Positions 21,075 through 64,000 are shown, counted from the first letter of the stretch. The stretch: 64,000 nucleotides of DNA from Candidatus Omnitrophota bacterium (GCA_043820815.1 JBDRDJ010000012.1:41952-105951), one strand, 5' to 3'. The notes: generated by a model not told the origin, from the sequence alone. Numbers and translations are program-made.

Positions 21075-21132
21075 ATTAAACCCCAGACCTTAATTGTGCT
21101 ATTCACGCGCTATGTTTACAGATTATTAGTTA

Positions 21133-21243: not shown

Positions 21244-21249
21244 ACCTTG

Positions 21250-21630: not shown

Positions 21631-23009
21631 ATTTGCTTGAGAATATAACTTTCTATATCTTTACTTGATTTGAATCTATCTCCTAAGGCTTCCCACATTT
21701 TCTTATTTTCCATACATAGATAAACAGGTGTCTTTGTATCGTGTTCACGTATCCATTTTACCATATTTTCATAGATTTCTCTTCTTAAAAATTCAGGATA
21801 CCTTAGTTTTTTATCCTTTCCGATAAAGAGCTCACCGTAAAAAATATTACTTTCGGGCAATCTCTTTTCAACAGCACTTTTAAGATTCCTGTGCGAGCGC
21901 AGTGTGCCTAAGCTTATCCAGCTAAAAGGAGCCGATACTGAGTTGTATAACTGTTCAAGCATATTTTTATATAAAGCCTTCCAGTTTTCTGAGTGGATAA
22001 TCGGGTCAAAGTGAAAGGCTATTCTGAAACCTTTTTTTTGCACTGTCTTTGCCGCATTTAGCCGCTCTTTTAAAGACGGAGCGCCGCGCTCTTCTTTATC
22101 AGATGTATCTTTGGGGTTAAGGGACCAGGATATAACAATATTTTTAGACGCTTCAATTGAGAGAATATTTTCTATTTGTGTGCTTTTGGTTTTAAGCTCA
22201 AATAATAAATTTTTATCCTTAAAGTAAGGCACGAGCTTCTTTGAGTATCCGGTTAAATGGTCAAGCGCAAGAGAATCGCAGAATTCACCTGTTCCTATAC
22301 GGATAGGTTTTTTTATTTTCTTTAGGAATGCGTCAAACTTTTCAAAGAAATCTTCAACATTTGCAGGGAGAATTATGCCGGGAAAATTAGAATATTGCTG
22401 CAGAAAGCAATACGAACAGTCATAGGGGCAGCCGAAACTTAAGTTAAATATCCAGTATCCGCAAGGCAGGTGGCCTTTTGTGCAGGGGCAGGGTTTTATA
22501 AAATCCCATTTTTCTTTTACAATGAAAACAATAGGTTTTTTAAGATCTGATAGCTTAAATTTATTTTTCTTAAGATATTCACTTTGATAATCAAGCTCGC
22601 TAATAGGAATTTTAGGAAACTTGCCTTTGATTTGCGAGGCAAATTTGCTACTCGCTACTTCCTTTTCTATGAATATATGGAGGGGTTTAAAATCATTTTT
22701 AACCTGATAATTATCGGTTAATGGGCTTTGGATAGGATTTAGGAAGATTTTTTCAGTGTCAATTATCTCCCTAGAAGAAGTAAGGGGAAAGCGCTTTTTT
22801 ACCAGCGAGTTTTTAATACCGTAAAATATGTTTCCCCCGGTGTACTTATGGAGTTGGGCGGATTGGTCTAAGTAATTAACTATTTCATCAAGCGAGACAT
22901 TCTCCCTTCGCATTATTTCAAAAATCAGCCGCTCGATATCTTTTAATTGATTCTTATTAGGCCTGAAATGAAATTTAGTTTCAAGAATCTGCCTGATATT
23001 TTCTAACAT
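21627..23009 (-). CDS. Radical SAM protein, spore-photoproduct-lyase-like family, with about 150-aa N-terminal extension
   Basis: CPYDCSYC CxxxCxxC cluster motif preceded by FIKPCPCT. Its stop overlaps the dgkA start by 4 nt. Confidence 0.7.
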   Translation of the reverse strand: MLENIRQILETKFHFRPNKNQLKDIERLIFEIMRRENVSLDEIVNYLDQSAQLHKYTGGNIFYGIKNSLVKKRFPLTSSREIIDTEKIFLNPIQSPLTDNYQVKNDFKPLHIFIEKEVASSKFASQIKGKFPKIPISELDYQSEYLKKNKFKLSDLKKPIVFIVKEKWDFIKPCPCTKGHLPCGYWIFNLSFGCPYDCSYCFLQQYSNFPGIILPANVEDFFEKFDAFLKKIKKPIRIGTGEFCDSLALDHLTGYSKKLVPYFKDKNLLFELKTKSTQIENILSIEASKNIVISWSLNPKDTSDKEERGAPSLKERLNAAKTVQKKGFRIAFHFDPIIHSENWKALYKNMLEQLYNSVSAPFSWISLGTLRSHRNLKSAVEKRLPESNIFYGELFIGKDKKLRYPEFLRREIYENMVKWIREHDTKTPVYLCMENKKMWEALGDRFKSSKDIESYILKQI

Positions 23010-46297: not shown

Positions 46298-47167
46298 ATG
46301 AATAAATACCTACGGTTGCTTCTTTTCATTTTTTTAATATCTGTGCCTATTTTCTTTTATAAGGCTTCTACCAACCAGCCTAAGCAAGAGAAGAAGACAA
46401 TATCTGTGCGAACCATAAGTAAGATACCGGGGAAGATTACTCCTAAAGGTTCCGGGACAGAAAACGATATTAATAAACCGCAGGTAAGTAACGATGAAAA
46501 TGACGCAAGAACAAAGATAGCTTTGATTTTTGATGATTTGGGCGAGAGTTTAAATGAGCTTAAAGATATATATTCTCTTGATATCCCTCTTACAATTTCA
46601 GTCATTCCCGGGTTAAAGTTTTCCCGTAACATAGCACATATCGGCATGCGTTCCGGATACACAGTTTTAATTCATTTGCCTTTTGAACCTAAACAAAGAC
46701 AGTTAAAAAATAACAAGTTTAGATATATAAGCGGCTCGCTTAAAGAAAAGGAAGTTAAGTCTCTCTTAAGAAGTTATTTAAACCATATAAAGATTGCTAA
46801 GGGAGTCAATAACCATATGGGGTCAAAAGCCACAGAAAACCCTAAGCTTATGCGTATTGTTTTTGAAGAATTAAAAAAAAGGGATTTGATTTTTATCGAT
46901 AGCAGGACTTCCCTTGATTCCGTAGCCTACAATATAGCCCAACAGATGGATGTGCGCTCTGCTTACAATGAAGGATTCATCGATTCTTTAAACGATCCAA
47001 GAAATATTTCTGAGCGCATTAAAGAATTGGTTAAGATTGCAAAGAATAAGGGAAGAATAATAGTTATCGCACATCCAAAGAAAAATACGATAGAGGTTCT
47101 ACGGAAAGAAATACCCCAACTTAAAAGCGAGATTCACTTTATAACAATAGAAGAATACTTTAAATGA
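46298..47167 (+). CDS. Divergent polysaccharide deacetylase (YibQ family)
   Basis: N-terminal anchor. The blocks IALIFDDLGESL, PLTISVIPG, VLIHLPFEP, NNHMGSKAT and IDSRTS are typical of YibQ-like proteins. Confidence 0.75.
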   Translation: MNKYLRLLLFIFLISVPIFFYKASTNQPKQEKKTISVRTISKIPGKITPKGSGTENDINKPQVSNDENDARTKIALIFDDLGESLNELKDIYSLDIPLTISVIPGLKFSRNIAHIGMRSGYTVLIHLPFEPKQRQLKNNKFRYISGSLKEKEVKSLLRSYLNHIKIAKGVNNHMGSKATENPKLMRIVFEELKKRDLIFIDSRTSLDSVAYNIAQQMDVRSAYNEGFIDSLNDPRNISERIKELVKIAKNKGRIIVIAHPKKNTIEVLRKEIPQLKSEIHFITIEEYFK

Positions 47168-47786: not shown

Positions 47787-48716
47787 ATGCGTGAGAAATA
47801 TTATTCCTTCAACCATTACCTTAAAGAGAAGTTTGGCCAGAGAGTGCATCGCATAAGCATTGATGCCGGGTTTGATTGCCCTAATATCGACGGGACATTA
47901 AGCAAAGACGGGTGTTCCTATTGTAACAATAAAGGGTTTTCTGTGAACACGGGAAAATTAAAATCAATTGAGGATCAAATTGAGGAGGCTATTGCATTTT
48001 ATCCTAAACGCTTTAAAGTGCAAAAATTTATTGCCTATTTTCAGCCTAACACCAATACATACGCTGACGTGGAAACTTTACGTGAGAAATACGATATAAT
48101 AAAGAAATACCCGCAAATAATAGGTTTATTTATTTCAACCAGGCCGGATTGTGTTGACGATGAAAAGATAAAACTCCTTTCTTCTTATGCCAAGAAATAC
48201 CTGGTATGGGTTGAATACGGATTACAAACAACCGATGACCGGTTGCTAATCGAAATTAACCGTAATCATACTTATGAAGATTTCTTATCCGCGCTTAATT
48301 TAACAAGGAGATACGGCATTAACGTAGCGGCCCATTTAATTTTTGGCTTGCCGGGGCAGAATCATGAAAAGATAATGGAGGATGCCAGGAGGCTTTCGAA
48401 TCTCGATATTCAGGGTATAAAATTTCATATTCTTCATGTGCTAAAGAAAACTAAGTTAGAAGGCCGTTACAATAAAGGCGGCTTCAAACTGTTAAGTGAG
48501 GCCGAGTATGTAAGGCTAATTTGTGATTTTTTAGAGAGGCTGCCGTCAGATTTAGCGGTTTTAAGGCTGGTTTCAACGGCAAACCCCGATTATCTTATAG
48601 CGCCGAAATGGATAAACAATAAGCATGCTGTTATTGACGCGATTAATAGAGAATTTATAAGGCGAGGAACATGCCAGGGTTTTTGCAAAACCCGAGAACA
48701 AATGCAAAATACGTAG
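47787..48716 (+). CDS. Radical SAM protein, TIGR01212 (YhcC-like) family
   Basis: HRISIDAGFDCPNIDGTLSKDGCSYCNNKGF N-terminal cluster motif characteristic of this family. Confidence 0.8.
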   Translation: MREKYYSFNHYLKEKFGQRVHRISIDAGFDCPNIDGTLSKDGCSYCNNKGFSVNTGKLKSIEDQIEEAIAFYPKRFKVQKFIAYFQPNTNTYADVETLREKYDIIKKYPQIIGLFISTRPDCVDDEKIKLLSSYAKKYLVWVEYGLQTTDDRLLIEINRNHTYEDFLSALNLTRRYGINVAAHLIFGLPGQNHEKIMEDARRLSNLDIQGIKFHILHVLKKTKLEGRYNKGGFKLLSEAEYVRLICDFLERLPSDLAVLRLVSTANPDYLIAPKWINNKHAVIDAINREFIRRGTCQGFCKTREQMQNT

Positions 48717-52976: not shown

Positions 52977-53229
52977 AATAGCCGCTGTTTTAAGCGCAGT
53001 TATTGTTTTTGCCATGGTTGTCTATTTTCCTAACCTTTCCAAGCTAAAGCAGCTGAGGGCGGAAAATGCCAAGCTGGCAAAAGAACAGGATAATTTGCGA
53101 GTCAAGATAAACGAGCTGCGTGAAAATATTGAAGCGGTAAAAACCGACCCTTCTCTTTTTGAACAGCTTGCGCGTGACACCATAGGAGTCGCCAAAGAAG
53201 ACGAAATAGTTATTGACATAGAGGAATAA
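52933..53229 (+). CDS. ftsB: Septum formation initiator FtsB/DivIC family protein
   Basis: 98 aa. One TM, then a coiled coil ([30 protein letters not shown]) and [22 protein letters not shown]. Conserved eno-ftsB adjacency. 44-nt overlap with eno. Confidence 0.7.
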
Positions 53230-53268
53230 ATTGTTAGAATACGCAATACGAATTGTTGTTTGAAATTT

Positions 53269-53345
53269 CGCGGGGTGGAGCAGCCAGGTAGCTCGCAAGG
53301 CTCATAACCTTGAGGTCGTCAGTTCAACTCTGACCCCCGCAACCA
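53269..53345 (+). tRNA. Initiator tRNA-fMet (anticodon CAT), CCA encoded
   Basis: The 77-nt cloverleaf was folded by hand: acceptor CGCGGGG/CCCCGCA with a C1-A72 mismatch, an A11-U24 pair, anticodon loop CTCATAA and T-loop TTCAACT. It is near-identical in layout to E. coli tRNA-fMet. Confidence 0.9.
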
Positions 53346-53359
53346 TTGTTTTAGTTTAG

Positions 53360-53395
53360 AAGGCCTTGGTTTTATAGCCAAGGCCTTATTTATTT
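53360..53395 (+). terminator. Rho-independent terminator after the tRNA
   Basis: Perfect 10-bp stem AAGGCCTTGG (53360-53369) with CCAAGGCCTT (53378-53387). 8-nt loop, followed by ATTTATTT. Confidence 0.7.
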
Positions 53396-53503: not shown

Positions 53504-54643
53504 ATGGTTTTAGAAAACTATGAAGTTTCAGTGGTTTTGCCCTGCTATAACGAGCAGGAGTCAATAGCAGCCTGTGTAGAGAAGATAAAAGGTGTTTTTG
53601 CCAAAGAAAATATACACGGAGAAATCATAGTAGTTGATAATAATTCAACCGATTCTTCAGCCCGTATTGCTAAGCAGTCAGGTGCTGAAATAGTTTTTCA
53701 GCCGATAAAGGGATACGGTGCCGCATATATCAAAGGTTTAGAAACGGCCCGCGCCCCTTTTATTATTATGGGTGATGCAGATAACACTTATGATTTTAAT
53801 GATATTCCCAGGTTTTTAGAGAAGCTGCGTAGTGGCTATGGCCTTGTGATGGGCTCACGTTTTAAAGGTAAAATCCACAAGGGTGCAATGCCATGGGCTA
53901 ACCGTTATATAGGCAATCCTATCCTTTCAGGGCTGTGCAGGTTGTTTTTCCGGACAAAACTTTCAGATATACACTGCGGAATGCGCGGATTTACAAAAGA
54001 GGCTTATCTTGTTATGAATCTGAGGTGCCTTGGAATGGAGTTTGCCACAGAAATGGTAATGGAGGCTTTGCAGAAAAAGTTAAAGATAACCGAAATACCC
54101 ATAGATTATTATCCAAGGGGAGGCGAGTCAAAATTAAGGCCAATAAGGGATGCCTGGCGGCACATGCGCTTTATGCTTATTTTTTGCCCAACATGGCTTT
54201 ATCTTTTTCCCGGGCTGTTTCTTACTGTTTTTGGAATATTAGGATTGTTTTTGCTTGCCCCGGGGCCGTTTATGTTTTTAGGAAGGTTTTGGGATATCCA
54301 TGTTATGGTATTGTGCTCTCTTTTAAGTATATTCGGCTATCAGCTTATGAGCATGGGTATGTTTGCCAAAACCTTTGCCGTAAAAGAAGGGTATCTTGCA
54401 GAGGATAAAACATTTTCCTTTTTAGCTAAGAATTTCAAACTCGAAACAGGGTTATTTTTAGGTTTTGTCTTTTTCTTATTTGGTTTTTCAATTAACTTTC
54501 TTATTTTTATCGAGTGGTGGCAGAAAGCATTCGGAGCTCTTTTTAGAATAAGAGAAACAATCCTTGCAGTCACCCTTATGATAGTAGGCTTACAAACTAT
54601 GTTTTCTTCATTTTTTGTCAGTCTTATCGTTATTGAAAGATAA
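53504..54643 (+). CDS. GT2 polyprenyl-phosphate sugar synthase-like glycosyltransferase (DPM1/GtrB/ArnC type) with C-terminal TM bundle
   Basis: VSVVLPCYNEQESI, VVDNNSTDSS and MGDADNTYD (DxD). The C-terminal third has about four hydrophobic helices. Confidence 0.8.
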   Translation: MVLENYEVSVVLPCYNEQESIAACVEKIKGVFAKENIHGEIIVVDNNSTDSSARIAKQSGAEIVFQPIKGYGAAYIKGLETARAPFIIMGDADNTYDFNDIPRFLEKLRSGYGLVMGSRFKGKIHKGAMPWANRYIGNPILSGLCRLFFRTKLSDIHCGMRGFTKEAYLVMNLRCLGMEFATEMVMEALQKKLKITEIPIDYYPRGGESKLRPIRDAWRHMRFMLIFCPTWLYLFPGLFLTVFGILGLFLLAPGPFMFLGRFWDIHVMVLCSLLSIFGYQLMSMGMFAKTFAVKEGYLAEDKTFSFLAKNFKLETGLFLGFVFFLFGFSINFLIFIEWWQKAFGALFRIRETILAVTLMIVGLQTMFSSFFVSLIVIER

Positions 54644-54666
54644 AGTGTTTTAAAGTTGATTTCAAG

Positions 54667-57264
54667 ATGATAAAGCAATTATTCACGATAAAGAAATTGG
54701 CAAAAACCCCGGTTGTCAGGAAAATTGCTCTGATAGCCGTATTCAGCTTCTGTATAGGTATTAATCTTTACCTTAGGATGTTCCTTGCCTATTTTCCTCA
54801 GTTGAAAACTCAAGCGCGGACTGAAGTTGAGAATAAAATTTCCAAAGATTCCATAGAAAAAGCCCAGGGGCTGTTCCCTGATTATAATTCTTATGCTCAA
54901 GACGAAATGGCTGTCGAGTTTTTTAAGGAAGCCGTAAAGGGCAAGAAAATATTCAACCGGCAGGTTAGCGAAAAATATACAGAGTTAAAAAGTAAATATC
55001 AGGATGAAACCGGCCAGACTTATCTTTTAGAGCTTGACCCCTATCAGTGGATGCGCTATACGGAAAACGTAGTAAAATACGGTCATCCCGGAGATAGAAA
55101 AGTAAAAGGAAAAAGTTATGACACTCACATGTTAGCCCCTGTAGGCATGCATATAGGGCCGGTGCGGTTTTTATTTTATTTTTCCGCACATCTTTATAAA
55201 GCAATCACTTTTTTCTATAAGGGGTTGTCATTTTATAAATATCTTTTCTACTTACCTCTTTTTTATACCTTTGTTTTTTTATTTATTGTTTATGTTTTTT
55301 CAGTCAAACTGTTTTCTCATTGGGGGGCGTTTGTTGCAACTCTTTTTATAGGATTAAACAGTATTTTTATCCGCAGAAGCTGTGCCGGCTGGTATGATTA
55401 TGATACGTTGAGCCTTATTGTGCCTTTACTTTTAGTTTGGTGCTTGTTTACCGCTTTATCAGGAAGAGTAAACTTAAGAAGGCTTACCATATATTCTATC
55501 ATTGCTTCATTCTTGCAGGGATTATACTCTTTTACCTGGGTAGGGTGGTGGTTTATTTTTCTTGTCGTATCATGTTTTTTTCTTTGCATGATTCTTAATA
55601 ATTACTGTCTTTATTATAAAGATTTAAGAAATGCCCACAGGCAGAATGCTCCTTACTTTATCTCGGCAATAATCTTTACGGCGGGAAGTATTTTATTCTG
55701 CTTTCTTATTTCCCGAATAAATCTTTTAACTTTTATTATTTCCAGTATAAAAGAGAACTTAAACCTGGGTAAATCCCTGTCGGTGTCTATCTGGCCCAAT
55801 ACTAATTATACAATAGGAGAATTGAAACCAGCGGACATGCTTAGAATAGCAGAAAATCTCCATGGTTTGTTGATGTTTGTTTTGTCTTTGTTCGGCATGC
55901 TTTGGTTCTATTCCAAGGAGAAAAGAGGAAGGCGCAAAGATTTTGTGTATATTATGCTTTTCTGGTTTTTATTTATGATCTTTGCTTCTTCTCGCAGTAT
56001 ACGTTTTGTGATATATCTGGCGGTTCCCTTAGGTTTTTTTCTGGGAGGATTTACAGATAACATTGTTAAAATAATTGGCGAAAAAAAATACCTTAAGGTT
56101 GGATTCCGGCATGCTTCTTATATAGGTTTTTTTCTGGCAATATGCCTTTTCACATGGATTGTTTTATCTTCAGGCATTAAGAGCTGCAAGCAGGTTTACC
56201 CGTTAATGGATGATGGCTGGCATAGAGTGCTTATGCGTATAAGAGCAGAAACCCCTTCCAATGCTGTTGTAAATTCCTGGTGGGATTATGGAAATTTCTT
56301 TAAGACAACGGCCGGGAGGCGGGTAATATTTGACGGCCAGTCTCAGAGCGGCACTCTTACTTATTGGATGGGAAAAGCCCTTGTGAGCGAGGACGAGAAT
56401 TCAGCCATGCGTATACTGAGGATGATAAACAACGCCTCTGACGGCACATTTAATTCTCTAAATAGCTACATTATAGATCCCTATAAAACTCTTGGGACTC
56501 TTGAACAATTATTGCTTTTGGATAGAGATAAAGGAGAAAATCTTTTACGCAAGAACAAAATACCCGCGAATATTATCAGTAAAGTAATGGATGATTTGCA
56601 TAAGGTGCCTGACCCGGCATATTTTATCGTTGATAGTACTATGGTAGGTAAAATGAGCCCGATTTCTTTTTTAGGCAATTGGGACGTTAAAAAACTTTAT
56701 ATTTATAAGAATATCAATGAGTCGAAGGCTGATGTCTTGAATGCGTTGCGTAGTATTTTTGGACTTTCCCCGGAAAGTGCCCAAAGCTATTATAACGAGA
56801 TAACCATAACGCCTGAGGGTAAACCTGTTTATGAGAGCTTATCGCAGAGATACTTCTACAATGGATATGCCGCCAAGGCAACAAAAACCGGAAATCTCAT
56901 CCATTTTGATAACGGGTTTTTATACAATTTTGATGCAAAGCAGGGGATTTTGTATTCTATAATGAATTTATCTTTCAAGAAGCCAAAGACGATTGTTGTT
57001 ACCGATGAGCATTCGCAAGAAAAGATTAAAACGGATGATGGCGATTATGAGAGAGCGGTGTGGATGTTTAAGGTTGATGATCAGTACCAGTCTATAATTC
57101 TAAACGAACCTCTGGCAAACTCGTTATTTTCCCGCTTATATTTTATAAAAGGAAGAGGGCTTAAGTGTTTTACGCCGTTTATAATGGATACAGAAGCAAA
57201 AATCTTTGTGTATAAGATAGAGTGGGATAAGGCCTGTGAAGATGCTGATAATTTGAGCGAATAG
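54667..57264 (+). CDS. STT3/AglB/PglB-family oligosaccharyltransferase (GT-C)
   Basis: 865 aa and polytopic. ELDPYQWMRY (55030-55059), WYDYD (55390-55404), TIGE (55810-55821) and WWDYG (56278-56292) occur in the order expected for OST catalytic subunits. A large C-terminal soluble domain follows. Confidence 0.8.
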   Translation: MIKQLFTIKKLAKTPVVRKIALIAVFSFCIGINLYLRMFLAYFPQLKTQARTEVENKISKDSIEKAQGLFPDYNSYAQDEMAVEFFKEAVKGKKIFNRQVSEKYTELKSKYQDETGQTYLLELDPYQWMRYTENVVKYGHPGDRKVKGKSYDTHMLAPVGMHIGPVRFLFYFSAHLYKAITFFYKGLSFYKYLFYLPLFYTFVFLFIVYVFSVKLFSHWGAFVATLFIGLNSIFIRRSCAGWYDYDTLSLIVPLLLVWCLFTALSGRVNLRRLTIYSIIASFLQGLYSFTWVGWWFIFLVVSCFFLCMILNNYCLYYKDLRNAHRQNAPYFISAIIFTAGSILFCFLISRINLLTFIISSIKENLNLGKSLSVSIWPNTNYTIGELKPADMLRIAENLHGLLMFVLSLFGMLWFYSKEKRGRRKDFVYIMLFWFLFMIFASSRSIRFVIYLAVPLGFFLGGFTDNIVKIIGEKKYLKVGFRHASYIGFFLAICLFTWIVLSSGIKSCKQVYPLMDDGWHRVLMRIRAETPSNAVVNSWWDYGNFFKTTAGRRVIFDGQSQSGTLTYWMGKALVSEDENSAMRILRMINNASDGTFNSLNSYIIDPYKTLGTLEQLLLLDRDKGENLLRKNKIPANIISKVMDDLHKVPDPAYFIVDSTMVGKMSPISFLGNWDVKKLYIYKNINESKADVLNALRSIFGLSPESAQSYYNEITITPEGKPVYESLSQRYFYNGYAAKATKTGNLIHFDNGFLYNFDAKQGILYSIMNLSFKKPKTIVVTDEHSQEKIKTDDGDYERAVWMFKVDDQYQSIILNEPLANSLFSRLYFIKGRGLKCFTPFIMDTEAKIFVYKIEWDKACEDADNLSE

Positions 57265-57299
57265 GCCGCCTGCCTTCATCGAGGCTGTTGTGATTGTCA

Positions 57300-58259
57300 A
57301 TGAGCAATAAGAATAAAATATGTATAATCGTTCCCGCCAAAGGAAATCCCTCAACACTTATTTCTTGTATTGAAAGCCTTATTAACTTGGACTACCGGCC
57401 TTTTGAGATTAGTATTGTTGATGACGGTCTGAGTGCTGATTCCGTGAAACTTCTTGAGCGCTTTGCAGGCAGAATAAATATTTTGCACAGCGATTCCCGC
57501 GGCCCCTCAAGCGCCCGCAACATGGCCGTTTACAATACCGATGTGCCATTTGTTGCTTTCACGGATTGCGATTGTATTGTAGACAAACAATGGCTGTTTG
57601 AATTAGCCAGGGGTTTTCAGGAATTTCCCCAAGCAGCCGCCTGCGGCGGGATTCAAGAAATCCCTGAAGATACAGGGCAATTTGAGAAAAAAGTTAATTT
57701 GCTGATGCAAAAAGCAAGCTGCGTTACTGATTACATGCGAAGCCCCAATACCGATAAGATCACCGAAGTAAAACATAATGCATCTTGCTGCGCTATGTAT
57801 AAGCGGGATGTTTTCTTAAAGGAAAAGGGTTTTTCAGAGGGGTTATGGCCGGGGGAGGATGTTGAATTTGATTGCCGGTTACGGAAAAAAGGGTATAAGA
57901 TTTTTTGCAACCCAAAAGCAGTTGTATATCATTACCGGACAAAAGACAGGGCAGCGTTTAATAGTATGATGTTTCGATACGGGAGAGCCCAGGGGATTCT
58001 GGTGAGGAAATATAATATTTTAAGAACAATACATATAGTGCCGTTATTGAGCTTGTTTATGATTGCTTTATTTATTTTAAGTTTGCAGTTTAATTTTTCA
58101 TTACTCTATTTAATCGTTATAACCGCATTGGGGTTGTCTCTTTGGGCTTATCTAAGGTTTGATTGGCGTATGTTGGAATTGGCGTTTAAAGGAGCTATAT
58201 ATTGGAATTGTGGGTTTTTTAAGGGTTTGATATCTAACAGGGCTGGGTATGGTATATGA
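57300..58259 (+). CDS. Family 2 glycosyltransferase with C-terminal membrane segments
   Basis: ICIIVPAKGN, ISIVDDGLS and FTDCDC (DxD-like). Two C-terminal hydrophobic helices. The ORF opens at TTG 57294. Confidence 0.8.
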   Translation: MSNKNKICIIVPAKGNPSTLISCIESLINLDYRPFEISIVDDGLSADSVKLLERFAGRINILHSDSRGPSSARNMAVYNTDVPFVAFTDCDCIVDKQWLFELARGFQEFPQAAACGGIQEIPEDTGQFEKKVNLLMQKASCVTDYMRSPNTDKITEVKHNASCCAMYKRDVFLKEKGFSEGLWPGEDVEFDCRLRKKGYKIFCNPKAVVYHYRTKDRAAFNSMMFRYGRAQGILVRKYNILRTIHIVPLLSLFMIALFILSLQFNFSLLYLIVITALGLSLWAYLRFDWRMLELAFKGAIYWNCGFFKGLISNRAGYGI

Positions 58260-59731
58260 GTTTAAGACAGAGTGAAGCAATGAAAATACTTGTTATCAAT
58301 GAGCCTTTTGTGCCGGATTTTTGCCGCACCCAGCGTTGGGCCGCGCGCACACGAGGAAGGGTTTTACGCGCACCTGACTGGCTGGCGTATGCAGCTTCTG
58401 TTCTTGAAAGAGATGGTTTTGATGTTGAACTGTATGATTTTTGTGCTTTAAGATGGGAGAAAGGAAAAATAGCTTCTTTAGCGAATGAGAAGAAACCCGA
58501 TTTCGTTATTCTTGATTCAACTACGCCTTCGATTTATTCTGATATAGAATGTGCGAAAATAATAAAAGATAATTCTAATGCCCGCGTAATCATGGTTGGG
58601 CCGCATGTTTCTGCTCTGCCGGATGAGGTGCTAAGAGATGCCCGGGGAGCGGTTGATGCAGCCTGTATAGGTGAATACGATTACACAGTCCGGGATGCCG
58701 TGCGTAATTTTGATAATTTAGAAAGAGTCCCGGGTATTGCCTGGTTTAATAGGGGGCTGATAAAGAAGACTTCGCCGCGGCCCCTCATAGAAAATCTTGA
58801 CGAAATTCCTTTTCCTGCCTGGCATCATTTAGATTTGATGAAATATTTTGACGGAGGAAAGCTGTACCCGTATATCGATGTTATTTCCGGCAGAGGCTGC
58901 CCGAATCGCTGCTCTTTTTGCCTTTGGCCGCAGGTTATGCATGGGTTTAAGTACCGCTTAAGGAGCCCATGCAATGTTGTTGATGAATTAGAATACGATA
59001 TAAAATTGTGCCCGAGGGTGCTAAAAGGCGAATTTTTCTTTGAGGACGATACGTTTACTGTTGATAGAGAACGTGCGATATTGATTTGCGAGGAGATTCT
59101 AAAGAGAGGTTTAAAGATTAATTTTTCCGTAAATGCCAGGGCTGACAGCGCTGACTTAGAAATGTTTAAGGTTATGAAGAAGGCCGGTTGCCGGGAACTT
59201 TTGGTTGGATTTGAGTCGGGAGTTCAGCAAATTCTGGATAATGTAAATAAAAACATAAAAGTTGAAGATTCATATAGATTTGTGGAGTTAGCTAAAAAAG
59301 CCAAATTACAGGTTCATGGATGCTTTGTTATTGGCTTGCCTGGTGAAACAGAGGAAACGGCTAAAAAAACCGTTGATTTCGCTTTATCTTTAGGCTGCGA
59401 TACTTTGCAATTTTCAGGAGCCGTGCCTTTTCCGGGAACAAAATTTTTTGAGCTGGCTGAATCGTCGGGATGGCTTAAATCCAGGGACTGGGCACAGTGG
59501 TTAGGCAGCGGAGAACAGAAAGGCATTATTTCTTATCCCGGTATTTCAGAAGACGCGGTTAATCATTATGTTGATCTGGGGTTACGCAAGTTTTATTTCA
59601 GGCCGATGTATATGTTGAAATTCCTTTTTGATACTCATTCAGTTTCAGATTTATATCGTAAATTAAGAGGGGCCTGCAATTTTGTTAATTATAATTTTGA
59701 GAAGGTTGTTTGCCGCCGCAAGAATTGTTAA
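58256..59731 (+). CDS. B12-binding-domain radical SAM protein (class B, putative methyltransferase)
   Basis: N-terminal cobalamin-binding-like domain (KILVINEPF...VIMVGPHVSALP) and SGRGCPNRCSFCLWPQ cluster motif. ATGA overlap with the upstream GT2. Confidence 0.8.
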   Translation: MSLRQSEAMKILVINEPFVPDFCRTQRWAARTRGRVLRAPDWLAYAASVLERDGFDVELYDFCALRWEKGKIASLANEKKPDFVILDSTTPSIYSDIECAKIIKDNSNARVIMVGPHVSALPDEVLRDARGAVDAACIGEYDYTVRDAVRNFDNLERVPGIAWFNRGLIKKTSPRPLIENLDEIPFPAWHHLDLMKYFDGGKLYPYIDVISGRGCPNRCSFCLWPQVMHGFKYRLRSPCNVVDELEYDIKLCPRVLKGEFFFEDDTFTVDRERAILICEEILKRGLKINFSVNARADSADLEMFKVMKKAGCRELLVGFESGVQQILDNVNKNIKVEDSYRFVELAKKAKLQVHGCFVIGLPGETEETAKKTVDFALSLGCDTLQFSGAVPFPGTKFFELAESSGWLKSRDWAQWLGSGEQKGIISYPGISEDAVNHYVDLGLRKFYFRPMYMLKFLFDTHSVSDLYRKLRGACNFVNYNFEKVVCRRKNC

Positions 59732-59999
59732 CTCCAAGAACATATCAAGTATTTATAGAGGAAGGCGTTTCTTGAATTTCATCTGTGCCCGCGGATATTG
59801 CGGAGTTTTTGCCTGGAATATCGTTTTTGGAAAGGATTATTTAAATCAGGATCGTTATCACGGAACTAAATATAAGTATCTTGAGTGATTTTAAAAAAGG
59901 TGAAAGCGAGCGGCTGTTGTTTTCTTTCTTAAAAAATGATAGACTTTTTAAAATTTCATTTTTTACCTTTAACTAAAGGCGTCATTCAGGGAGTTCAAC

Positions 60000-61001
60000 A
60001 TGATTCAGTTTGATAAGAATAAACTAAAAGAAATTCATCAAGACATATTAATTGATCTTTACAGGATAATGTTACGGATCAGAATGATTGAAGACGCGAT
60101 AGGAGAGGAATACCCAAAGGATGAAATGAAAACGCCTATACATCTTTGCACCGGCCAGGAGGCGATTCCCGCGGGTGTTTGTAAATATCTTAAAAAGGAT
60201 GATTATGTTTTAAGTAATTATAGAGGACACGGTCATTATCTTGCTAAGGGGGGGGATTTAAGATCTCTCATAGCCGAGCTTTACGGAAGAGATACCGGTT
60301 GCTGCCGCGGAAGAGGCGGTTCCATGCATATAGTTGATGTTTCAGTGGGGATTGTAGGGACTTCCGCCATTGTAGGAGGAGGTGTTCCAATCGCAACAGG
60401 AATTGGATTAGCTTCTGTTTTAGAGAAGAACTCCCGGGTATCAGTTGTGTTTTTTGGCGACGGAGCTGTTGATGAGGGTGTGTTGTATGAGAGCATAAAT
60501 TTTTCCATGCTCAAGAAGCTGCCGGTTATTTACGCTTGCGAGAACAATTTTTACGCGGTGTGCTCTCATCAGAGTAAACGTCAGCCCCGGGATAATATTT
60601 ATTGCCGGTTTCAGGGATGCGGAATCCCCGGTTATAGAGTCGACGGCAATAATGTGATTGAGGTTTATCAGATAGCGAAAAATGTTATAGATAATGCCCG
60701 CCGAGGAGGAGGCCCGGCTTTCATAGAATTCAGAACATACCGGTGGAAAGGCCATTCCGGAAATGATTCGGATGTGAGTTTAGGGTATCGGACGCAGGAA
60801 GAACTCGATGAATGGGTAAAACGATGCCCCTTGAAAAATTTCGAAAATTTCTTATTAGATGAAAGAATTATTGCTAAGGAACAAATACGTTTATTTGAGC
60901 AGGATATTGATAAGGAGATACAGGAAGCATTTGAGTTCGCGCAAAAAAGCCCTTTCCCTGATGAGGAGAGTATTATGGATTATCTTTATAAAGAAAAGTA
61001 G
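60000..61001 (+). CDS. Thiamine-diphosphate-dependent dehydrogenase E1 component, alpha subunit
   Basis: YRGHGHYLAKGGD, GRGGSMHI and the TPP motif GDGAVDEGVLYESINFSMLKKLPVIYACENN. Confidence 0.85.
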   Translation: MIQFDKNKLKEIHQDILIDLYRIMLRIRMIEDAIGEEYPKDEMKTPIHLCTGQEAIPAGVCKYLKKDDYVLSNYRGHGHYLAKGGDLRSLIAELYGRDTGCCRGRGGSMHIVDVSVGIVGTSAIVGGGVPIATGIGLASVLEKNSRVSVVFFGDGAVDEGVLYESINFSMLKKLPVIYACENNFYAVCSHQSKRQPRDNIYCRFQGCGIPGYRVDGNNVIEVYQIAKNVIDNARRGGGPAFIEFRTYRWKGHSGNDSDVSLGYRTQEELDEWVKRCPLKNFENFLLDERIIAKEQIRLFEQDIDKEIQEAFEFAQKSPFPDEESIMDYLYKEK

Positions 61002-61007
61002 GGTTAT

Positions 61008-62060
61008 ATGGGTATAAGTTTTGACTGGGATAAAAAGAGTATCGAAAGAGAAGAACCCGGGTTTGAAGATGTGTTAAAGCATGGCGGCCGGAAAATAAAA
61101 TATGCAGAGGCTCTTCATGAGGCTTTTGACGAGATTTTGGCGACAAATGATAAAGTGTTTGTTATGGGGCAGGGGGCAGATGACCCTTTTGGCATGTTCG
61201 GAAGCATTTTAGATTTATATAAAAAATACGGGAATGAAAGGATTTTTGATACCCCTTTGTCAGAAGATTCTTTAACCGGGGTTGCTGTGGGAGCGGCTCT
61301 TGCGGGCCTGCGGCCTGTTTATATGCATAACCGGCCGGATTTTTTACTGCTTGCCATGGATCAAATCGTTAATCACGCTTCCAAATGGCATTACATGTTT
61401 GGAGGAAAGATCAGCGTTCCTTTAGTAATCTGGGCGGTAATCGGCAGGGGGTGGGGATCTGCGGCTCAACATTCTCAATGTATCCAGGGTTTATTGATGC
61501 ATATTCCCGGATTAAAGATTGTTATGCCTTCTACTCCGTATGATTCCAAAGGATTATTGGTTTCCAGCATATTCGATGATAACCCGGTTATTATTTTAGA
61601 ACACCGGTGGTTGTTGAAAGGCAGCGGCTATGTTCCTAAGGGATTATATACCATTCCTTTTGGAAAGGGAGTTGTTAAAAGGGGTGGTAAAGATGTTACT
61701 ATTGTCGGTACATCTTACATGATAGTAGAAGCGATACGTGCGGCAGAAGAATTAAGCAGGGAGAACATTGAAGTCGAAGTTATAGATTTGCGCACCTTAA
61801 AGCCGCTAGATGAAGCCATTATTTTAGAATCCGTAAAAAAAACCGGGCGTCTTGTAATTACTGATGTGGGATGGAAAACAGCGGGCGTAACAGCTGAGAT
61901 TGCCGCAGTTGTAGCAGAAAAAGGTTTTTCTTATCTTAAAAGGCCTATTAAAAGAGCGGCGTCTTTAGATATTCCTACTCCCGCATGCCATATATTAGAG
62001 AAAAAGTTTTATGCTGATGTAAAAGATATTATTTCATCCGTAAAGGAGCTTATGAAATGA
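61008..62060 (+). CDS. E1 component beta subunit (transketolase-like pyrimidine-binding and C-terminal domains)
   Basis: VFVMGQGADDPFG, FDTPLSEDSLTGVAVGAALAGLRPV and VIDLRTLKPLD. Confidence 0.85.
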   Translation: MGISFDWDKKSIEREEPGFEDVLKHGGRKIKYAEALHEAFDEILATNDKVFVMGQGADDPFGMFGSILDLYKKYGNERIFDTPLSEDSLTGVAVGAALAGLRPVYMHNRPDFLLLAMDQIVNHASKWHYMFGGKISVPLVIWAVIGRGWGSAAQHSQCIQGLLMHIPGLKIVMPSTPYDSKGLLVSSIFDDNPVIILEHRWLLKGSGYVPKGLYTIPFGKGVVKRGGKDVTIVGTSYMIVEAIRAAEELSRENIEVEVIDLRTLKPLDEAIILESVKKTGRLVITDVGWKTAGVTAEIAAVVAEKGFSYLKRPIKRAASLDIPTPACHILEKKFYADVKDIISSVKELMK

Positions 62061-62989
62061 AGATATTGGTTACGGGAGGAGCAGGGTATATTGGTTCGGT
62101 TCTGGTCGCGGAATTAATTAAATCCGGGTACGAAGCGGTTGTTATCGATAATTTCATGTATAATCAAACCTCTCTTCTGGATTGTTGTTATGATAAAAAA
62201 TTGACCGTAGTCCGCGGGGATGTAAGAAATACAAAATTAATTTTAGAATGGGTGAAAAAGACTGACGCGTTCTTCCCTTTAGCCTGTTTAACCGGAGCCC
62301 CGATATGCAATGAACGGCCTTATGAGGCAAAATCAATTATTGTCGATGCCGTAAAAACAGTATTAGATGAACGCAGTAAGAATCAGCCGATAATTTTTCC
62401 CACAACGAATAGCGGCTACGGTATAGGGCAGAAAGGTACTTTCTGTACGGAAGAAACGCCTTTAAATCCTGTTTCTATCTACGGGAAACTAAAAGTAGAG
62501 GCGGAAAAAATCCTTCTTGATGCTGGCAACTGTATTACATTAAGGCTGGCAACCGCGTTTGGCATCAGCCCTCGGATGAGGCTTGATCTTCTTGTAAATG
62601 ATTTTGTTTACCGCGCGGTAAATGACCGGTTTATTATTGTTTTTCAGGCGGCTTTTAAACGCAATTATATACATGTCCGTGATGTGGCTAAGGCCTTTAT
62701 CCATTCTTTAGAAAATTACGAAAGCATGAAAAATAATTGTTATAACGTAGGCTTAAGCGACGCGAATTTAAGTAAATTGGAGTTATGCGAAGAAATAAAA
62801 AAACATCTCCCGGATTTTTATTTTGTTGAAGCCCAGGTAGGTGAAGACCCGGATAAAAGAGATTATGTTGTCAGTAATGATAAAATTGAAAAGACAGGTT
62901 TTATGCCCGATTTTTCATTGCCGGCCGGGATCGCCGAACTTATAAAAGGTTTTCAGGTTATACGGAGAAATAATTTTTCAAATCTGTAA
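62057..62989 (+). CDS. NAD-dependent epimerase/dehydratase (extended SDR)
   Basis: MKILVTGGAGYIGS Rossmann motif and the YGKLK catalytic YxxxK. ATGA overlap with E1 beta. Confidence 0.85.
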   Translation: MKILVTGGAGYIGSVLVAELIKSGYEAVVIDNFMYNQTSLLDCCYDKKLTVVRGDVRNTKLILEWVKKTDAFFPLACLTGAPICNERPYEAKSIIVDAVKTVLDERSKNQPIIFPTTNSGYGIGQKGTFCTEETPLNPVSIYGKLKVEAEKILLDAGNCITLRLATAFGISPRMRLDLLVNDFVYRAVNDRFIIVFQAAFKRNYIHVRDVAKAFIHSLENYESMKNNCYNVGLSDANLSKLELCEEIKKHLPDFYFVEAQVGEDPDKRDYVVSNDKIEKTGFMPDFSLPAGIAELIKGFQVIRRNNFSNL

Positions 62990-63043
62990 AACGGGGATTA
63001 AAAAATATTTACCCCGTTAGAGAACTACGTCCTCTAACGGGGT
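62990..63043 (+). repeat. Two overlapping, mutually exclusive hairpins (AACGGGG / CCCCGTTAGAG / CTCTAACGGGG)
   Basis: Hairpin A pairs AACGGGG (62990-62996) with CCCCGTT (63012-63018). Hairpin B is a perfect 12-bp stem, ACCCCGTTAGAG (63011-63022) with CTCTAACGGGGT (63032-63043). Confidence 0.65.
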
Positions 63044-63074
63044 TTACCGGTAATAAAATAATGGAGATTATCTT

Positions 63075-64000
63075 ATGATTATTAGCCGTACGCCGTTTCG
63101 TATATCATTTTTTGGAGGAGGAACCGATTACCCGATTTGGTACCGCAAACACGGCGGCGCAGTTTTAGCTACGACAATAAACAAATATTGTTATATCAGC
63201 TGCAGGTATTTACCTCCCTTTTTTCCCCATAAATACCGTATTATTTATTCTCAGATAGAGCTTGTCAAGAATATTTCTGAGATTAATCATCCTTCCGTCC
63301 GAGAGGGTTTGAAGTTTATGAAGATAAAAAGAGGATTGGAAGTTCATCATGACGCCGATCTTCCTGCCCGTACGGGGTTAGGGTCAAGTTCTTCTTTCAC
63401 GGTGGGCTTATTGCATACATTAAACGCGATTAAAGGGAGTATATCGACAAAGCGGCAGCTGGCGCTTGATGCCATATATCTTGAACAGGAGATGATGAAG
63501 GAGAATGTTGGATCTCAGGATCAGGTATCGGCTTCCTTTGGGGGGATGAACTATATAAAATTTAACAGTCATCAGGATATTGAAGTCCATCCGATTACTA
63601 TAACAGCTAAGAGAATGAGTTTGTTTCACAGCCATTTAATGCTTTTTTTTACCGGTTTCTCAAGGATAGCTTCTGATATAGCCGCGGAGCAGATAAAAAC
63701 AATTCATTCAAAAACTAAAGAGCTTCGCCAGATACATGATATGGTTGACGCGTCTTTGCAAATTTTAACCGGTAAATCTGATTTTATCAAATTCGGGAAA
63801 TTACTGCATGAGCATTGGAAGATTAAGCGCGGTTTATCGAAGAAGATATCAACGCCTCTCATAGATGAGATGTATACAACGGCTTTAAGGGCAGGAGCAA
63901 TAGGAGGGAAAATACTAGGTGCCGGGGGAGGAGGGTTTTTATTGATTTTTGCTAAGCCCCAGGATCAAGCTCGCATTAAAGAGAAGTTAAAGAAACTCTT
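63075..64000 (+). CDS. GHMP-family sugar kinase (HddA-like D-glycero-D-manno-heptose 7-phosphate kinase type), 3' end outside window
   Basis: This ORF is not in the supplied track because no stop is reached. It reads MIISRTPFRISFFGGGTDYP and LPARTGLGSSSSF (GHMP motif), then GGKILGAGGGGF. GGAG SD at 63063-63066. Confidence 0.75.
   Translation, partial: MIISRTPFRISFFGGGTDYPIWYRKHGGAVLATTINKYCYISCRYLPPFFPHKYRIIYSQIELVKNISEINHPSVREGLKFMKIKRGLEVHHDADLPARTGLGSSSSFTVGLLHTLNAIKGSISTKRQLALDAIYLEQEMMKENVGSQDQVSASFGGMNYIKFNSHQDIEVHPITITAKRMSLFHSHLMLFFTGFSRIASDIAAEQIKTIHSKTKELRQIHDMVDASLQILTGKSDFIKFGKLLHEHWKIKRGLSKKISTPLIDEMYTTALRAGAIGGKILGAGGGGFLLIFAKPQDQARIKEKLKKL

Follow-up and report, generated by a model that had tools for sequence, protein, structure and literature searches.

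A gene cluster centered on an STT3-family oligosaccharyltransferase (OST) in a Candidatus Omnitrophota MAG probably encodes a native N-linked protein glycosylation system of archaeal (Agl-like) design, which would act, again probably, on pilins. All of its steps are inferred, and no experiment on any Omnitrophota protein supports them. In the proposed model, a glycosyltransferase of family GT2 (GT2a) would transfer a hexose from a nucleotide sugar to polyprenyl phosphate on the cytoplasmic side of the membrane, a second one (GT2b; in relatives also more GT2/GT4 enzymes) would lengthen the lipid-linked glycan, and a HpnJ-like B12 radical-SAM enzyme (rSAM) would alter one sugar of the lipid-linked intermediate. 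The glycan would then be flipped by a component that is missing from the window, i.e., the whole stretch of 64,000 nt that was analyzed (GCA_043820815.1 JBDRDJ010000012.1:41952-105951), and in the periplasm STT3 would attach it to the sequon Asn (N-x-S/T), with type IV pilins/pseudopilins as the likeliest acceptors. A second unit (E1 alpha/beta, SDR and GHMP kinase) would provide an unusual activated sugar that varies by lineage and is probably heptose-type or two-carbon-branched.

The sequence-only reading had placed eight genes and their domains at 53504-64000, and ORF calls together with Pfam bore this out, each domain assignment in the locus exceeding the Pfam gathering score. The genes, and the features that bound them upstream, are as follows:

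53269-53345, + strand: tRNA-Met (CAT), probably initiator, upstream locus boundary (ARAGORN; Rfam tRNA, 58.9 bits)
53360-53387, + strand: intrinsic-terminator-like hairpin 3′ of the tRNA (12-bp stem, 6 G:C pairs, T-rich tail)
53504-54643, + strand: GT2a, a GT2 with a C-terminal TM bundle (ORF and Pfam)
54667-57264, + strand: STT3-family oligosaccharyltransferase, 865 aa (ORF and Pfam)
57294-58259, + strand: GT2b, a second GT2 with C-terminal TM helices (ORF and Pfam)
58256-59731, + strand: rSAM, B12-binding radical SAM, HpnJ-like paralog (Pfam B12-binding, Radical_SAM)
60000-61001, + strand: E1 alpha-like subunit, ThDP-dependent (Pfam E1_dh)
61008-62060, + strand: E1 beta-like subunit (Pfam Transket_pyr, Transketolase_C)
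62057-62989, + strand: SDR-type NDP-sugar epimerase/dehydratase (Pfam Epimerase)
63072 to beyond 64000, + strand: GHMP sugar kinase, HddA-like, cut by the window end (Pfam GHMP_kinases_N, _C)

The genes had been described as a single co-directional run, which is correct as to strand. GT2a and STT3 are separated by 24 bp, STT3 and GT2b by 30 bp, and the GT2b stop and the rSAM start overlap by 4 bp; further downstream, E1 alpha and E1 beta are 7 bp apart, E1 beta and the SDR overlap by 4 bp, and the SDR and the GHMP kinase are 82 bp apart. A gap of 269 bp separates rSAM from E1 alpha, and together with a weak terminator-like site at 59789-59803 it suggests two predicted transcription units rather than one, namely GT2a-STT3-GT2b-rSAM and then E1 alpha/beta-SDR-GHMP. 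When the region from 53 to 64 kb, including this gap, was searched with Rfam, the tRNA was the sole match and no riboswitch was found. No integrase, flippase, initiating phosphoglycosyltransferase, WaaL or Wzy was found within 41-64 kb, and no nucleotidyltransferase gene in the window; the earlier remark that neither a flippase nor UDP-diNAcBac genes could be seen also held for the window locus in a domain search. That a pilin gene, a flippase and a nucleotidyltransferase are all missing from the window speaks against the proposed model.

GT2a (Pfam Glycos_transf_2, 93.6 bits) had AglJ as its best NCBIfam match (TIGR04182, 172 bits, below the cut-off of 325). Its nearest solved relatives were the P. 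furiosus Dol-P-Man synthase (5MLZ, E 6e-15) and, in second place, ArnC (E 2.5e-11), with the match spanning residues 7-289. The DAD motif (DxD) of GT2a aligned with that of PfDPMS, four hydrophobic segments at about residues 225-379 (read from the translation) make up its C-terminal TM bundle, and its orthologs bear Pfam GT2_TM_C. The criteria for a putative polyprenyl-phosphate hexosyltransferase-like GT2 of the DPM1/AglJ/ArnC type are met in this way, the activity itself being an inference from sequence. GT2b is likewise a Glycos_transf_2 protein (89.3 bits), and in relatives as well as in Elusimicrobiota its orthologs (36-57% identity) are neighbors of the rSAM ortholog.

The HpnJ model (TIGR03471) matched rSAM over its full length with 363.8 bits, below the cut-off of 577.6, with GT2 genes and STT3 around it and no hpn genes; judged by this score and by the lack of hopanoid context, rSAM does not appear to be a HpnJ equivalog. 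Its nearest solved structure is AprD4, a sugar diol-dehydratase, and its orthologs share 57-77% identity in Omnitrophota and ~70% in other phyla. The enzyme probably modifies a sugar or a lipid-linked sugar, a function that is inferred. HpnI and HpnJ, which serve the hopanoid side chain, are a GT2 and a B12 radical-SAM enzyme working on lipid-linked glucosamine. The locus resembles this pair in that a GT2 gene is translationally coupled to a HpnJ-like rSAM, and it differs in the low rSAM score, in the lack of any HpnI match of GT2b, in the absence of hopanoid genes nearby, and in the rSAM substrate, which we presume, by inference, to be a polyprenyl-linked sugar.

We compared 80 related loci. 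A GT2a ortholog was found directly 3′ of STT3 in 44 of the 64 that could be assessed, and in a further subset the rSAM and GT2b orthologs were located ≤10 kb from STT3; GT2a, rSAM and GT2b orthologs occurred all together in 10/41 loci. The gene order of the window, with GT2a 5′ of STT3 and GT2b before rSAM, differs from that of the relatives. The idea that the eight genes form one conserved locus could be kept only in part, i.e., STT3 and GT2a, often with rSAM and GT2b, are co-conserved, whereas the E1, SDR and GHMP genes are variable.

The same comparison bears on another explanation, according to which STT3 does act as an N-OST but draws on a pyrophosphate-linked oligosaccharide that genes elsewhere in the genome assemble, while the polyprenyl-monophosphate sugar made by GT2a (with rSAM and GT2b) serves another GT-C enzyme of the periplasm. 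The latter would decorate the transferred glycan or some other envelope polymer, as in a GtrB/ArnC three-component system or as AglD/AglS do. A PMT_2-type GT-C is present in 26/80 related loci, directly 3′ of GT2a in two of them (L021 and L033) and often preceded by a second, soluble DPM1-like GT2, and where present it may be the enzyme that actually consumes what GT2a makes. The GT2a-rSAM-GT2b trio is found without STT3 in other phyla (Elusimicrobiota), so that the product of the trio need not be the OST donor, and one locus (L087) carries a Wzm/Wzt-like ABC transporter, a type that typically exports pyrophosphate-linked glycans. However, no PMT_2 homolog was detected by tblastn in the whole 64-kb window, even though GT2a stands only 24 bp from STT3 there, no pgl-type genes, including an initiating phosphoglycosyltransferase, were found in the locus or among the annotated recurrent neighbor families, and the STT3-then-GT2 adjacency is common to DPANN archaea. 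We regard this arrangement, in both of its parts taken jointly, as unlikely, without setting it aside. Whether the carrier is a mono- or a diphosphate cannot be read from the sequence, which is a weakness of the monophosphate-based model that we prefer.

The identity of STT3 as an N-OST (family GT66) rests on domain, motif and fold evidence. The protein matched Pfam STT3 (PF02516) with 78.5 bits (cut-off 24.5) and STT3-PglB_core (PF21436) with 30.9 bits (cut-off 23). Its AlphaFold (AF2) model (pLDDT 87.2, pTM 0.83) has 13 long TM helices before residue 510, followed by a periplasmic domain, and the EL5 loop is disordered in it, with low confidence at residues 365-400. When this model was compared with the PDB by Foldseek, ranks 1-19 were all N-OST catalytic subunits (PglB, STT3A/B, yeast Stt3, AglB), with PglB as the best match (E 2e-21, TM 0.54-0.64); other GT-C enzymes appeared only below rank 19, and ArnT, AftA and DPY19 far lower. 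The sequence identity to any characterized OST is 13-15%, equally low for AglB, PglB and eukaryotic STT3.

The catalytic acidic residues of OSTs are D56 and D154/D156 in PglB, and D47 and D161/H163 in AfAglB. Acidic residues of EL1/EL2 in STT3, D124 (23/23 homologs), D244 (20/23) and D246 (21/23), aligned with AfAglB D47 and D161/H163. The EL5 motif T382-I-G-E385 lies in the predicted EL5 loop and is well kept (T382 in 22/23, I/V at 383, E385 in 23/23 homologs), and we infer, from position and not from an alignment, that E385 is the equivalent of PglB E319. The WWDYG motif, which forms the +2 Ser/Thr pocket of OSTs, is found at residues 538-542 (W538 in 22, W539 in 23, D540 in 22, Y/F541 in 23 and G542 in 23 of 23 homologs) and aligned with the WWDYG of AfAglB and human STT3A. 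R446, present in all 23 homologs, aligned with AfAglB R426, the conserved Arg that touches the carrier phosphate. After the core β-strand, known OSTs carry either a DK motif (DxxKxxxM/I) or a MI motif (MxxIxxxI/V/W). At the site that we take to correspond, placed by eye against the published yeast and PglB patterns, STT3 has M659xxK662xxxI666 (19, 19 and 21 of 23 homologs), a DK/MI hybrid that is not known from characterized OSTs. STT3 has the predicted catalytic and sequon-binding motifs of an N-OST, the DK/MI position being atypical, and by Pfam, motifs, AF2 and Foldseek the earlier description of an OST-centered protein-glycosylation locus passed the sequence and fold tests; transfer to the Asn of N-x-S/T is inferred, with indirect support only. 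Automated annotation already names these proteins STT3; what is new concerns the system with its context and predicted targets, rather than recognition of the domain.

The indirect support comes from the genes that flank STT3 in relatives. In 21 of 55 assessable related loci a pilin-like ORF was located ≤3 kb upstream of STT3, where it ends a PilMN-secretin-T2SSE-T2SSF-pilin operon (type IV pilus/type II secretion). The mature parts of these pilins contain 226 N-x-S/T sequons in 7,671 residues, versus 94.8±8.6 after shuffling, and the control patterns gave 113 (reversed motif) and 93 (N-x-x-S/T). In the remaining long ORFs of these loci, sequons were about as frequent as expected (0.38 per 100 aa). 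When each 40%-identity cluster was represented by a single pilin, 79 sequons were counted versus 35.6±5.4, and 0/500 shuffles reached 79. The positions of the sequons turn over among pilin homologs, and D/E was present at position -2 in 18/226, so that no bias towards D/E-x-N-x-S/T was observed. This evidence was obtained from relatives whose STT3 shares just 29-46% identity, and no pilin or T2SS/T4P homologs were found in the window by tblastn and a scan for the pilin N-terminal motif. As acceptors for STT3, type IV pilins and pseudopilins are thus the best candidates, Asn transfer being inferred.

The sequon-specific excess in adjacent pilins would be hard to account for if the STT3-like protein were not a protein N-glycosyltransferase, i.e., if it used a non-protein acceptor (LPS core, lipid or polysaccharide) or another amino acid and the locus were an envelope-polysaccharide cluster. 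Such an interpretation could draw on the low identity to characterized OSTs, on the atypical DK/MI motif, and on the fact that GT2, SDR and kinase neighbors are equally usual in polysaccharide loci. We consider it very unlikely, in view also of the conservation of WWDYG (22-23/23 homologs) and of the K and I of the DK/MI position, of the top fold matches, which are N-OSTs throughout with ArnT, AftA and DPY19 far below, and of the fact that neither WaaL nor Wzy was seen in the window.

Read as an N-OST system, the locus is most readily compared with the archaeal Agl pathway (AglB plus AglJ/AglG-type GT2 on dolichyl phosphate, e.g., in Haloferax volcanii), which likewise has a single-subunit STT3 OST beside a DPM1/AglJ-like GT2, together with further GT2 enzymes. 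In both, a GT2a-type enzyme would start the glycan on a polyprenyl monophosphate, and the likely type IV pilin-like targets and the short N-x-S/T sequon are alike; the second Dol-P-sugar synthase and the PMT_2 GT-C of the relatives resemble AglD/AglS. The differences are that the Omnitrophota host is a diderm bacterium, that STT3 reaches only 50 bits with AglB TIGR04154 (cut-off 450) and GT2a falls short of AglJ, and that the DK-position motif is MxxKxxxI and a HpnJ-like rSAM is a conserved partner. STT3 and GT2a are inferred to work like AglB and AglJ, but they have not been shown to belong to these equivalog families. We know of no B12 radical-SAM enzyme of the HpnJ-like kind in a characterized Agl pathway. 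The lipid carrier of Omnitrophota is presumably undecaprenyl-type and not dolichol, which is an inference.

The closest relatives of STT3 outside Omnitrophota are the uncharacterized STT3s of DPANN archaea (Woesearchaeota/Nanoarchaeota), which score 550-680 bits with the Omnitrophota profile. Their genes have a GT2 directly downstream, an STT3-then-GT2 adjacency that is shared with Omnitrophota, plus a small membrane protein, DUF2304. In a neighbor-joining tree the Omnitrophota and DPANN STT3 clades were sister groups and Nitrososphaerota AglB branched at a great distance from both; the tree contained no PglB, no eukaryotic STT3 and no wider sample of AglB, and the sister-clade topology leaves the direction of interdomain transfer unpolarized. 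Since the identity to AglB is as low as that to PglB and eukaryotic STT3, what justifies the term "archaeal-type" is the kinship with DPANN STT3s and the nature of the partner genes. The view that the locus is closer to Agl than to pgl was accordingly supported by DPANN kinship, an AglJ/PfDPMS-like GT2a, the lack of pgl genes and the lack of a D/E-sequon bias, but not by identity to AglB.

The pgl system of Campylobacter jejuni/lari (PglB) is alike in being bacterial and periplasmic and in using a single-subunit STT3-family OST. It differs in that STT3 and PglB share ~14-15% identity, that the Omnitrophota locus lacks a PglC-type enzyme, diNAcBac genes and a PglK flippase, that the Omnitrophota donor probably passes through a GT2-made monophosphate intermediate, and that the extended sequon is not favored in the pilins. 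Three-component systems (a GtrB/ArnC GT2, a flippase, and a GT-C such as ArnT/Gtr) also have a TM-tailed GT2 beside a GT-C, and GT2a has ArnC as its closest solved relative after 5MLZ; in contrast, the GT-C of the locus is an STT3 with WWDYG, not of the ArnT/PMT type, and a flippase resembling GtrA was not seen.

The E1 alpha/beta, SDR and GHMP genes are sugar-precursor genes that differ by lineage. E1 alpha (Pfam E1_dh, 238.8 bits) scored 333.9 bits with the PDH E1 alpha model, below its cut-off of 393.85, and E1 beta scored 325.2 bits with NF006667, above its cut-off of 321. A pyruvate dehydrogenase complex was rejected, because no E2 or E3 gene was found near the pair within 41-64 kb and because an E1 ortholog/pair recurs within a glycan cluster in a relative (L038). 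PDH-E1-like pairs without E2/E3 are found beside an SDR in sugar gene sets of actinomycete antibiotic clusters (AviB1/AviB2 and Pau11/Pau12), where the proposal is that they attach a branch of two carbons, taken from pyruvate, to a 4-keto sugar (PMC4425429); we drew this likeness without a direct sequence comparison. The SDR (Pfam Epimerase, 98.5 bits) has a 52%-identical ortholog in another glycan cluster (L048). The best NCBIfam match of the GHMP kinase was the HddA heptose-7-phosphate kinase (NF049969), at 135 bits for the truncated gene versus a cut-off of 600. In L021 and L033 its orthologs (39-42% identity) stand beside a GmhA-like SIS protein, a nucleotidyltransferase-HAD fusion, a transaldolase and an SDR, i.e., in GDP-heptose-like gene sets. 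The equivalog cut-offs of AglJ, AglB, HpnJ and HddA were all missed by the proteins of the locus, and this counts against the model.

To our knowledge, the characterized OST-dependent N-glycosylation of bacteria is limited to PglB systems, in Campylobacterota and a few Desulfobacterota and Deferribacterota, and we know of bacterial pilin glycosylation only as O-linked. A full-text literature search, limited to searchable texts, returned no relevant paper linking Omnitrophota with STT3, oligosaccharyltransferase or dolichyl, and none of the papers listed by a narrower, combined full-text search that included AglB and PglB mentioned Omnitrophota. Omnitrophota are ultra-small bacteria, at least one of which preys on archaea. 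We entertain, with more doubt than conviction, the wider proposal that Omnitrophota N-glycosylate type IV pili/pseudopilins by means of an OST lineage that they share specifically with DPANN and that was exchanged between the domains along with its partner GT2, using a monophosphate-linked donor with an rSAM-remodeled sugar. On this view bacteria would possess a second type of N-glycosylation system, independent of the known one, and these would be the first bacterial pilins to carry N-linked glycans. If true, an evolutionarily separate, phylum-wide OST lineage would broaden the range of bacterial N-glycosylation, an STT3 lineage common to bacteria and DPANN would bear on the spread of N-glycosylation among domains, and N-glycosylated type IV pili would be expected in bacteria; short-sequon single-subunit OSTs and an uncharacterized sugar-modifying radical-SAM enzyme would also become available as glycoengineering tools.

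The locus is native to the Omnitrophota genome. Its GC (0.398 versus 0.3965 in the rest of the window) and GC3 (0.388 versus 0.389) do not deviate, and its tetranucleotide distance lies inside the range of the other window chunks. The genes upstream are housekeeping ones (enolase, FtsB/DivIC, NadE, Lgt), which together with the composition marks the locus as native, and the STT3 family occurs in at least 106 genomes counted at species level, almost all of them from Omnitrophota (scan of genome contigs; best match 52% identity). The sequence-only reading, which had held that the locus may be core rather than mobile and had seen neither an integrase nor a second tRNA 3′ end in the window, was right on each of these points. 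A mobile island recently gained and inserted at the tRNA gene, which the start of the locus right behind a tRNA and its gene order unlike that of the relatives might suggest, is scarcely tenable and was rejected on composition, codon usage and gene context, including the absence of an integrase and of a repeat of the tRNA 3′ end from the window, the phylum-wide family, and the enolase ortholog of L031, which likewise precedes STT3 there, by ~4 kb.

A C1xA72 mismatch and A11:U24 are the usual marks of bacterial initiator tRNAs, and both could be read from the sequence of the tRNA-Met, in agreement with its designation as tRNA-fMet, with only 2/3 of the canonical G:C pairs in the anticodon stem. 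The terminator reported behind it at 53360-53395 is present but ends at 53387, and a promoter-like site with 11/12 matches was found ahead of the tRNA-Met, at 53213-53240.

We infer, on the evidence of sequence, predicted structure, gene context and sequon statistics, that bacteria have a second type of STT3-based N-glycosylation, represented by this locus, with DPANN-related enzymes, a radical-SAM partner and predicted pilin targets. The STT3-type label has already been given to Omnitrophota proteins by the NCBI and JGI pipelines, and a preprint on the giant genes of Omnitrophota touches on glycosylation in passing only; full-text literature searches revealed no paper discussing oligosaccharyltransferases (OSTs) or N-glycosylation in this phylum. 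The eight co-directional genes of the sequence-only reading were recovered as ORFs at the same coordinates (53.5-64 kb), and all eight domain calls, made with Pfam, exceeded the gathering score.

Features of the locus and its upstream border
53269-53345, forward strand: tRNA-Met(CAT), upstream of the locus
53360-53387, forward strand: terminator hairpin with a 12-bp stem, 3′ of the tRNA
53504-54643, forward strand: glycosyltransferase family 2 (GT2a)
54667-57264, forward strand: STT3 and STT3/PglB core domain (STT3)
57294-58259, forward strand: second GT2 (GT2b)
58256-59731, forward strand: B12-binding and Radical_SAM domains (rSAM)
60000-61001, forward strand: E1_dh (E1 alpha)
61008-62060, forward strand: Transket_pyr and Transketolase_C (E1 beta)
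62057-62989, forward strand: Epimerase (SDR)
63072 to the window end, forward strand: GHMP kinase, N and C domains

By inspection, the tRNA has the C1xA72 mismatch and the A11:U24 pair that are hallmarks of initiators, and only 2/3 of the anticodon-stem G:C pairs. A near-consensus sigma-70 promoter-like site (53213-53240; TTGACA, 16-nt spacer, TAGAAT, extended TG) lies 29 bp 5′ of the tRNA gene. GT2a, STT3, GT2b and rSAM are tightly spaced, with gaps of 24 and 30 bp and then an overlap of 4 bp. The 269 bp between rSAM and E1 alpha include a weak terminator-like site, so that two transcription units are likelier than a single one. The locus region yielded neither a riboswitch nor any other known RNA. 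The 82-bp SDR-GHMP gap contains a hairpin (63011-63043) with a perfect 15-bp stem (8 G:C pairs) and a T-run on the minus strand.

The nearest NCBIfam model of GT2a was AglJ (172 bits, under the cut-off), its nearest solved structures were the Pyrococcus Dol-P-Man synthase and ArnC, with the DAD motif aligned, and its orthologs bear Pfam GT2_TM_C. The rSAM protein matched the HpnJ model over its full length (363.8 bits, under the 577.6 cut-off), and its nearest solved relative is AprD4, a sugar diol-dehydratase; from these likenesses it is predicted to modify a sugar. Its conservation is striking: proteins about 70% identical to rSAM occur in Elusimicrobiota, Endomicrobiia, Caldiserica, Margulisiibacteriota and others, and in Elusimicrobiota/Endomicrobiales a GT2(GT2_TM_C)-rSAM-GT2 trio was found without STT3 nearby (loci L081, 5939-10451, and L082, 6874-10433). 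Hence, the trio is an older and wider module, of unknown chemistry, that Omnitrophota joined to an OST. In L084 (233-2660), a contig binned as Aenigmatarchaeota whose neighbouring genes appear bacterial, the view is limited to the rSAM-GT2 pair, since the contig begins just upstream. The E1 pair, which has no E2 or E3, is not the first of its kind: AviB1/B2 and Pau11/12 are proposed to transfer two carbons of pyruvate, as a branch, to a 4-keto sugar (PMC4425429).

When the window proteins were compared by BLAST with the ORFs of 80 related loci, a GT2a ortholog (46-68% identity) began at most a few hundred bases 3′ of STT3 in 44 of the 64 loci with sufficient downstream sequence, and a weaker GT2 took this position in 4 more. 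Where 8 kb or more of sequence followed STT3 (41 loci), rSAM was present in 12, GT2b in 13 and all three partners in 10. The usual order in relatives is STT3, GT2a, an optional soluble GT2 and PMT_2-type GT-C, then rSAM and GT2b, and it is rearranged in the window (GT2a, STT3, GT2b, rSAM). In the 80 loci, the E1 pair recurred only in L038, the SDR only in L048 and the GHMP kinase in L021, L033 and L048, among other sugar-nucleotide genes (sugar C-methyltransferase, GmhA-like SIS protein, nucleotidyltransferase-HAD fusion, transaldolase, methyltransferases); this half of the locus is therefore a lineage-variable precursor module. Thus, of the eight-gene locus first proposed, STT3/GT2a is co-conserved, rSAM/GT2b in a subset, and the E1/SDR/GHMP part is not.

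The best-supported model, in which function is inferred, is an Agl-like pathway. GT2a would begin the glycan on polyprenyl phosphate, GT2b would extend it and rSAM modify it, an unidentified flippase would carry it to the periplasmic face, and STT3 would pass it to Asn. In L087, the nearest relative from JGI (STT3 49% identical), the last two genes of the STT3-GT2a-rSAM-GT2 cluster encode an ABC-2 membrane protein and an ATPase (Wzm/Wzt-like, 19746-21897), and this pair might export or flip the lipid-linked glycan. The main alternative is that STT3 is an OST, but GT2a and its product serve a separate PMT_2-type GT-C. Such a GT-C is encoded in 26 of the 80 related loci, whereas none is present in the window, where only 24 bp separate GT2a from STT3.

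A profile built from 23 STT3 homologs matched, among solved structures, A. fulgidus AglB (63.6 bits), human STT3A (51 bits) and C. lari PglB (40 bits). The alignment with AglB paired D124 with D47, D244/D246 with D161/H163, R446 with R426, and WWDYG with WWDYG.

Conservation of STT3 residues in the 23 homologs
D124: 23/23
D244 and D246: 20/23 and 21/23
T382 and E385 (TIxE-like motif): 22/23 and 23/23
R446: 23/23
W538, W539, D540 and G542: 22, 23, 22 and 23 of 23
M659xxK662xxxI666 (DK/MI position): 19, 19 and 21 of 23

The last motif mixes both known forms (DK and MI). The AlphaFold2 model was confident (pLDDT 87.2, pTM 0.83); it has 13 TM helices, its EL5 loop is of low confidence, and its periplasmic domain mixes alpha and beta structure. 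In Foldseek against the PDB its best 19 matches were all N-OST catalytic subunits, PglB (E 2e-21) preceding STT3A/B, yeast Stt3 and AglB, and DPY19, AftA and ArnT ranked below all of them.

Clustering of STT3 neighbours revealed small proteins recurring upstream. In L038 (287-9943) these are five pilins with the N-terminal methylation motif, preceded by PilM/N, secretin, T2SSE and T2SSF, the last pilin gene lying ~20 bp from the STT3 start. Of the 55 loci that could be assessed, 21 had a pilin-like ORF no more than 3 kb upstream of STT3; none was found in the window. STT3 ends a PilMN-secretin-T2SSE-T2SSF-pilin operon in L038 and 20 other loci (e.g., L024, L037, L052, L076). The mature parts of 69 pilin-like ORFs (7,671 residues) held 226 N-x-S/T sequons (x not P), ~2.4-fold over the 94.8±8.6 of composition-preserving shuffles; the counts were 113 for the reversed S/T-x-N, 93 for N-x-x-S/T and 68 for N-S/T. 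With one pilin per 40%-identity cluster, 79 were counted vs 35.6±5.4 expected, a value reached by 0/500 shuffles, and the remaining long ORFs of these loci, 624 in number, contained N-x-S/T about as often as expected (0.38 per 100 aa, z -2). Within single clusters the sequons spread over 24-26 alignment columns: their number is kept and their positions turn over between homologs. N-x-T (154) exceeded N-x-S (72) and, unlike in PglB substrates, D/E stood at -2 in only 18/226. This excess is a separate, in-silico line of support for a functional N-OST, and type IV pilins or pseudopilins are inferred to be among its targets. That the STT3-like gene encodes something other than an OST, which was part of a condition set for refuting the sequence-only reading, is unlikely as far as sequence and fold can show, given the conserved catalytic and WWDYG motifs, the top 19 fold matches and the pilin sequons; activity itself is inferred.

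The STT3 family is abundant in Omnitrophota, with 76 matches in a word-indexed search (those with a named source were almost all Omnitrophota) and 106 confirmed loci in species-representative genomes, several of which carry two paralogs. Examples are L015 (JAJYOP), L007/L039 (JBDRAN), L056/L078 (DAONEO) and L036/L069 (MHGF01); in the last three only one paralog adjoins GT2a(-rSAM-GT2b) genes. In a related JGI contig (L088, 1-3519) an intein-interrupted RtcB gene lies 5′ of STT3. In an exhaustive profile search of 1.84 billion representatives, 5,036 proteins passed E≤1e-3, of which 1,355 also passed E≤1e-30; Omnitrophota-sized proteins ranked first, followed by proteins of 900-1,190 aa at 550-680 bits, which, where identified in other searches, form a large Woesearchaeota/Nanoarchaeota (DPANN) family. 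In a neighbour-joining tree the Omnitrophota and DPANN clades were sisters, far from Nitrososphaerota AglB, with the direction of transfer unresolved. In two DPANN loci the genes next after STT3 encode a 220-aa GT2 and a DUF2304 membrane protein, the same STT3-GT2 adjacency as in Omnitrophota. Directly 5′ of STT3 both have a FAD-dependent reductase-like gene (FAD_binding_3/GIDA families; L085, 6863-7948, and L086, 6693-7790), for which the polyprenol carrier is a possible substrate. Peptidyl-prolyl isomerase domains (rotamase, cyclophilin, FKBP) are fused to the DPANN homologs P0067, P0069, P0072 and P0312, which suggests a physical link between OST and folding catalyst in several DPANN STT3s.

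The locus is native, as had been suspected, and a mobile island is unlikely: GC (0.398 vs 0.3965), GC3 (0.388 vs 0.389) and tetranucleotide distance (10.9 vs 6.7-12.2 for other 10.5-kb chunks) of 53.5-64 kb do not deviate from the rest of the window, and the ten upstream ORFs are housekeeping (H+-PPase, endonuclease III, GH5, Rpe, deacetylase, radical SAM protein, Lgt, NadE, enolase, FtsB/DivIC), with no integrase among them. An STT3 protein of 100% identity is recorded from a Candidatus Omnitrophota MAG. At 5-7 kb upstream of the locus lie a divergent polysaccharide deacetylase (Polysacc_deac_2, 46298-47164) and a second radical SAM protein (Radical_SAM_C, 47787-48716).
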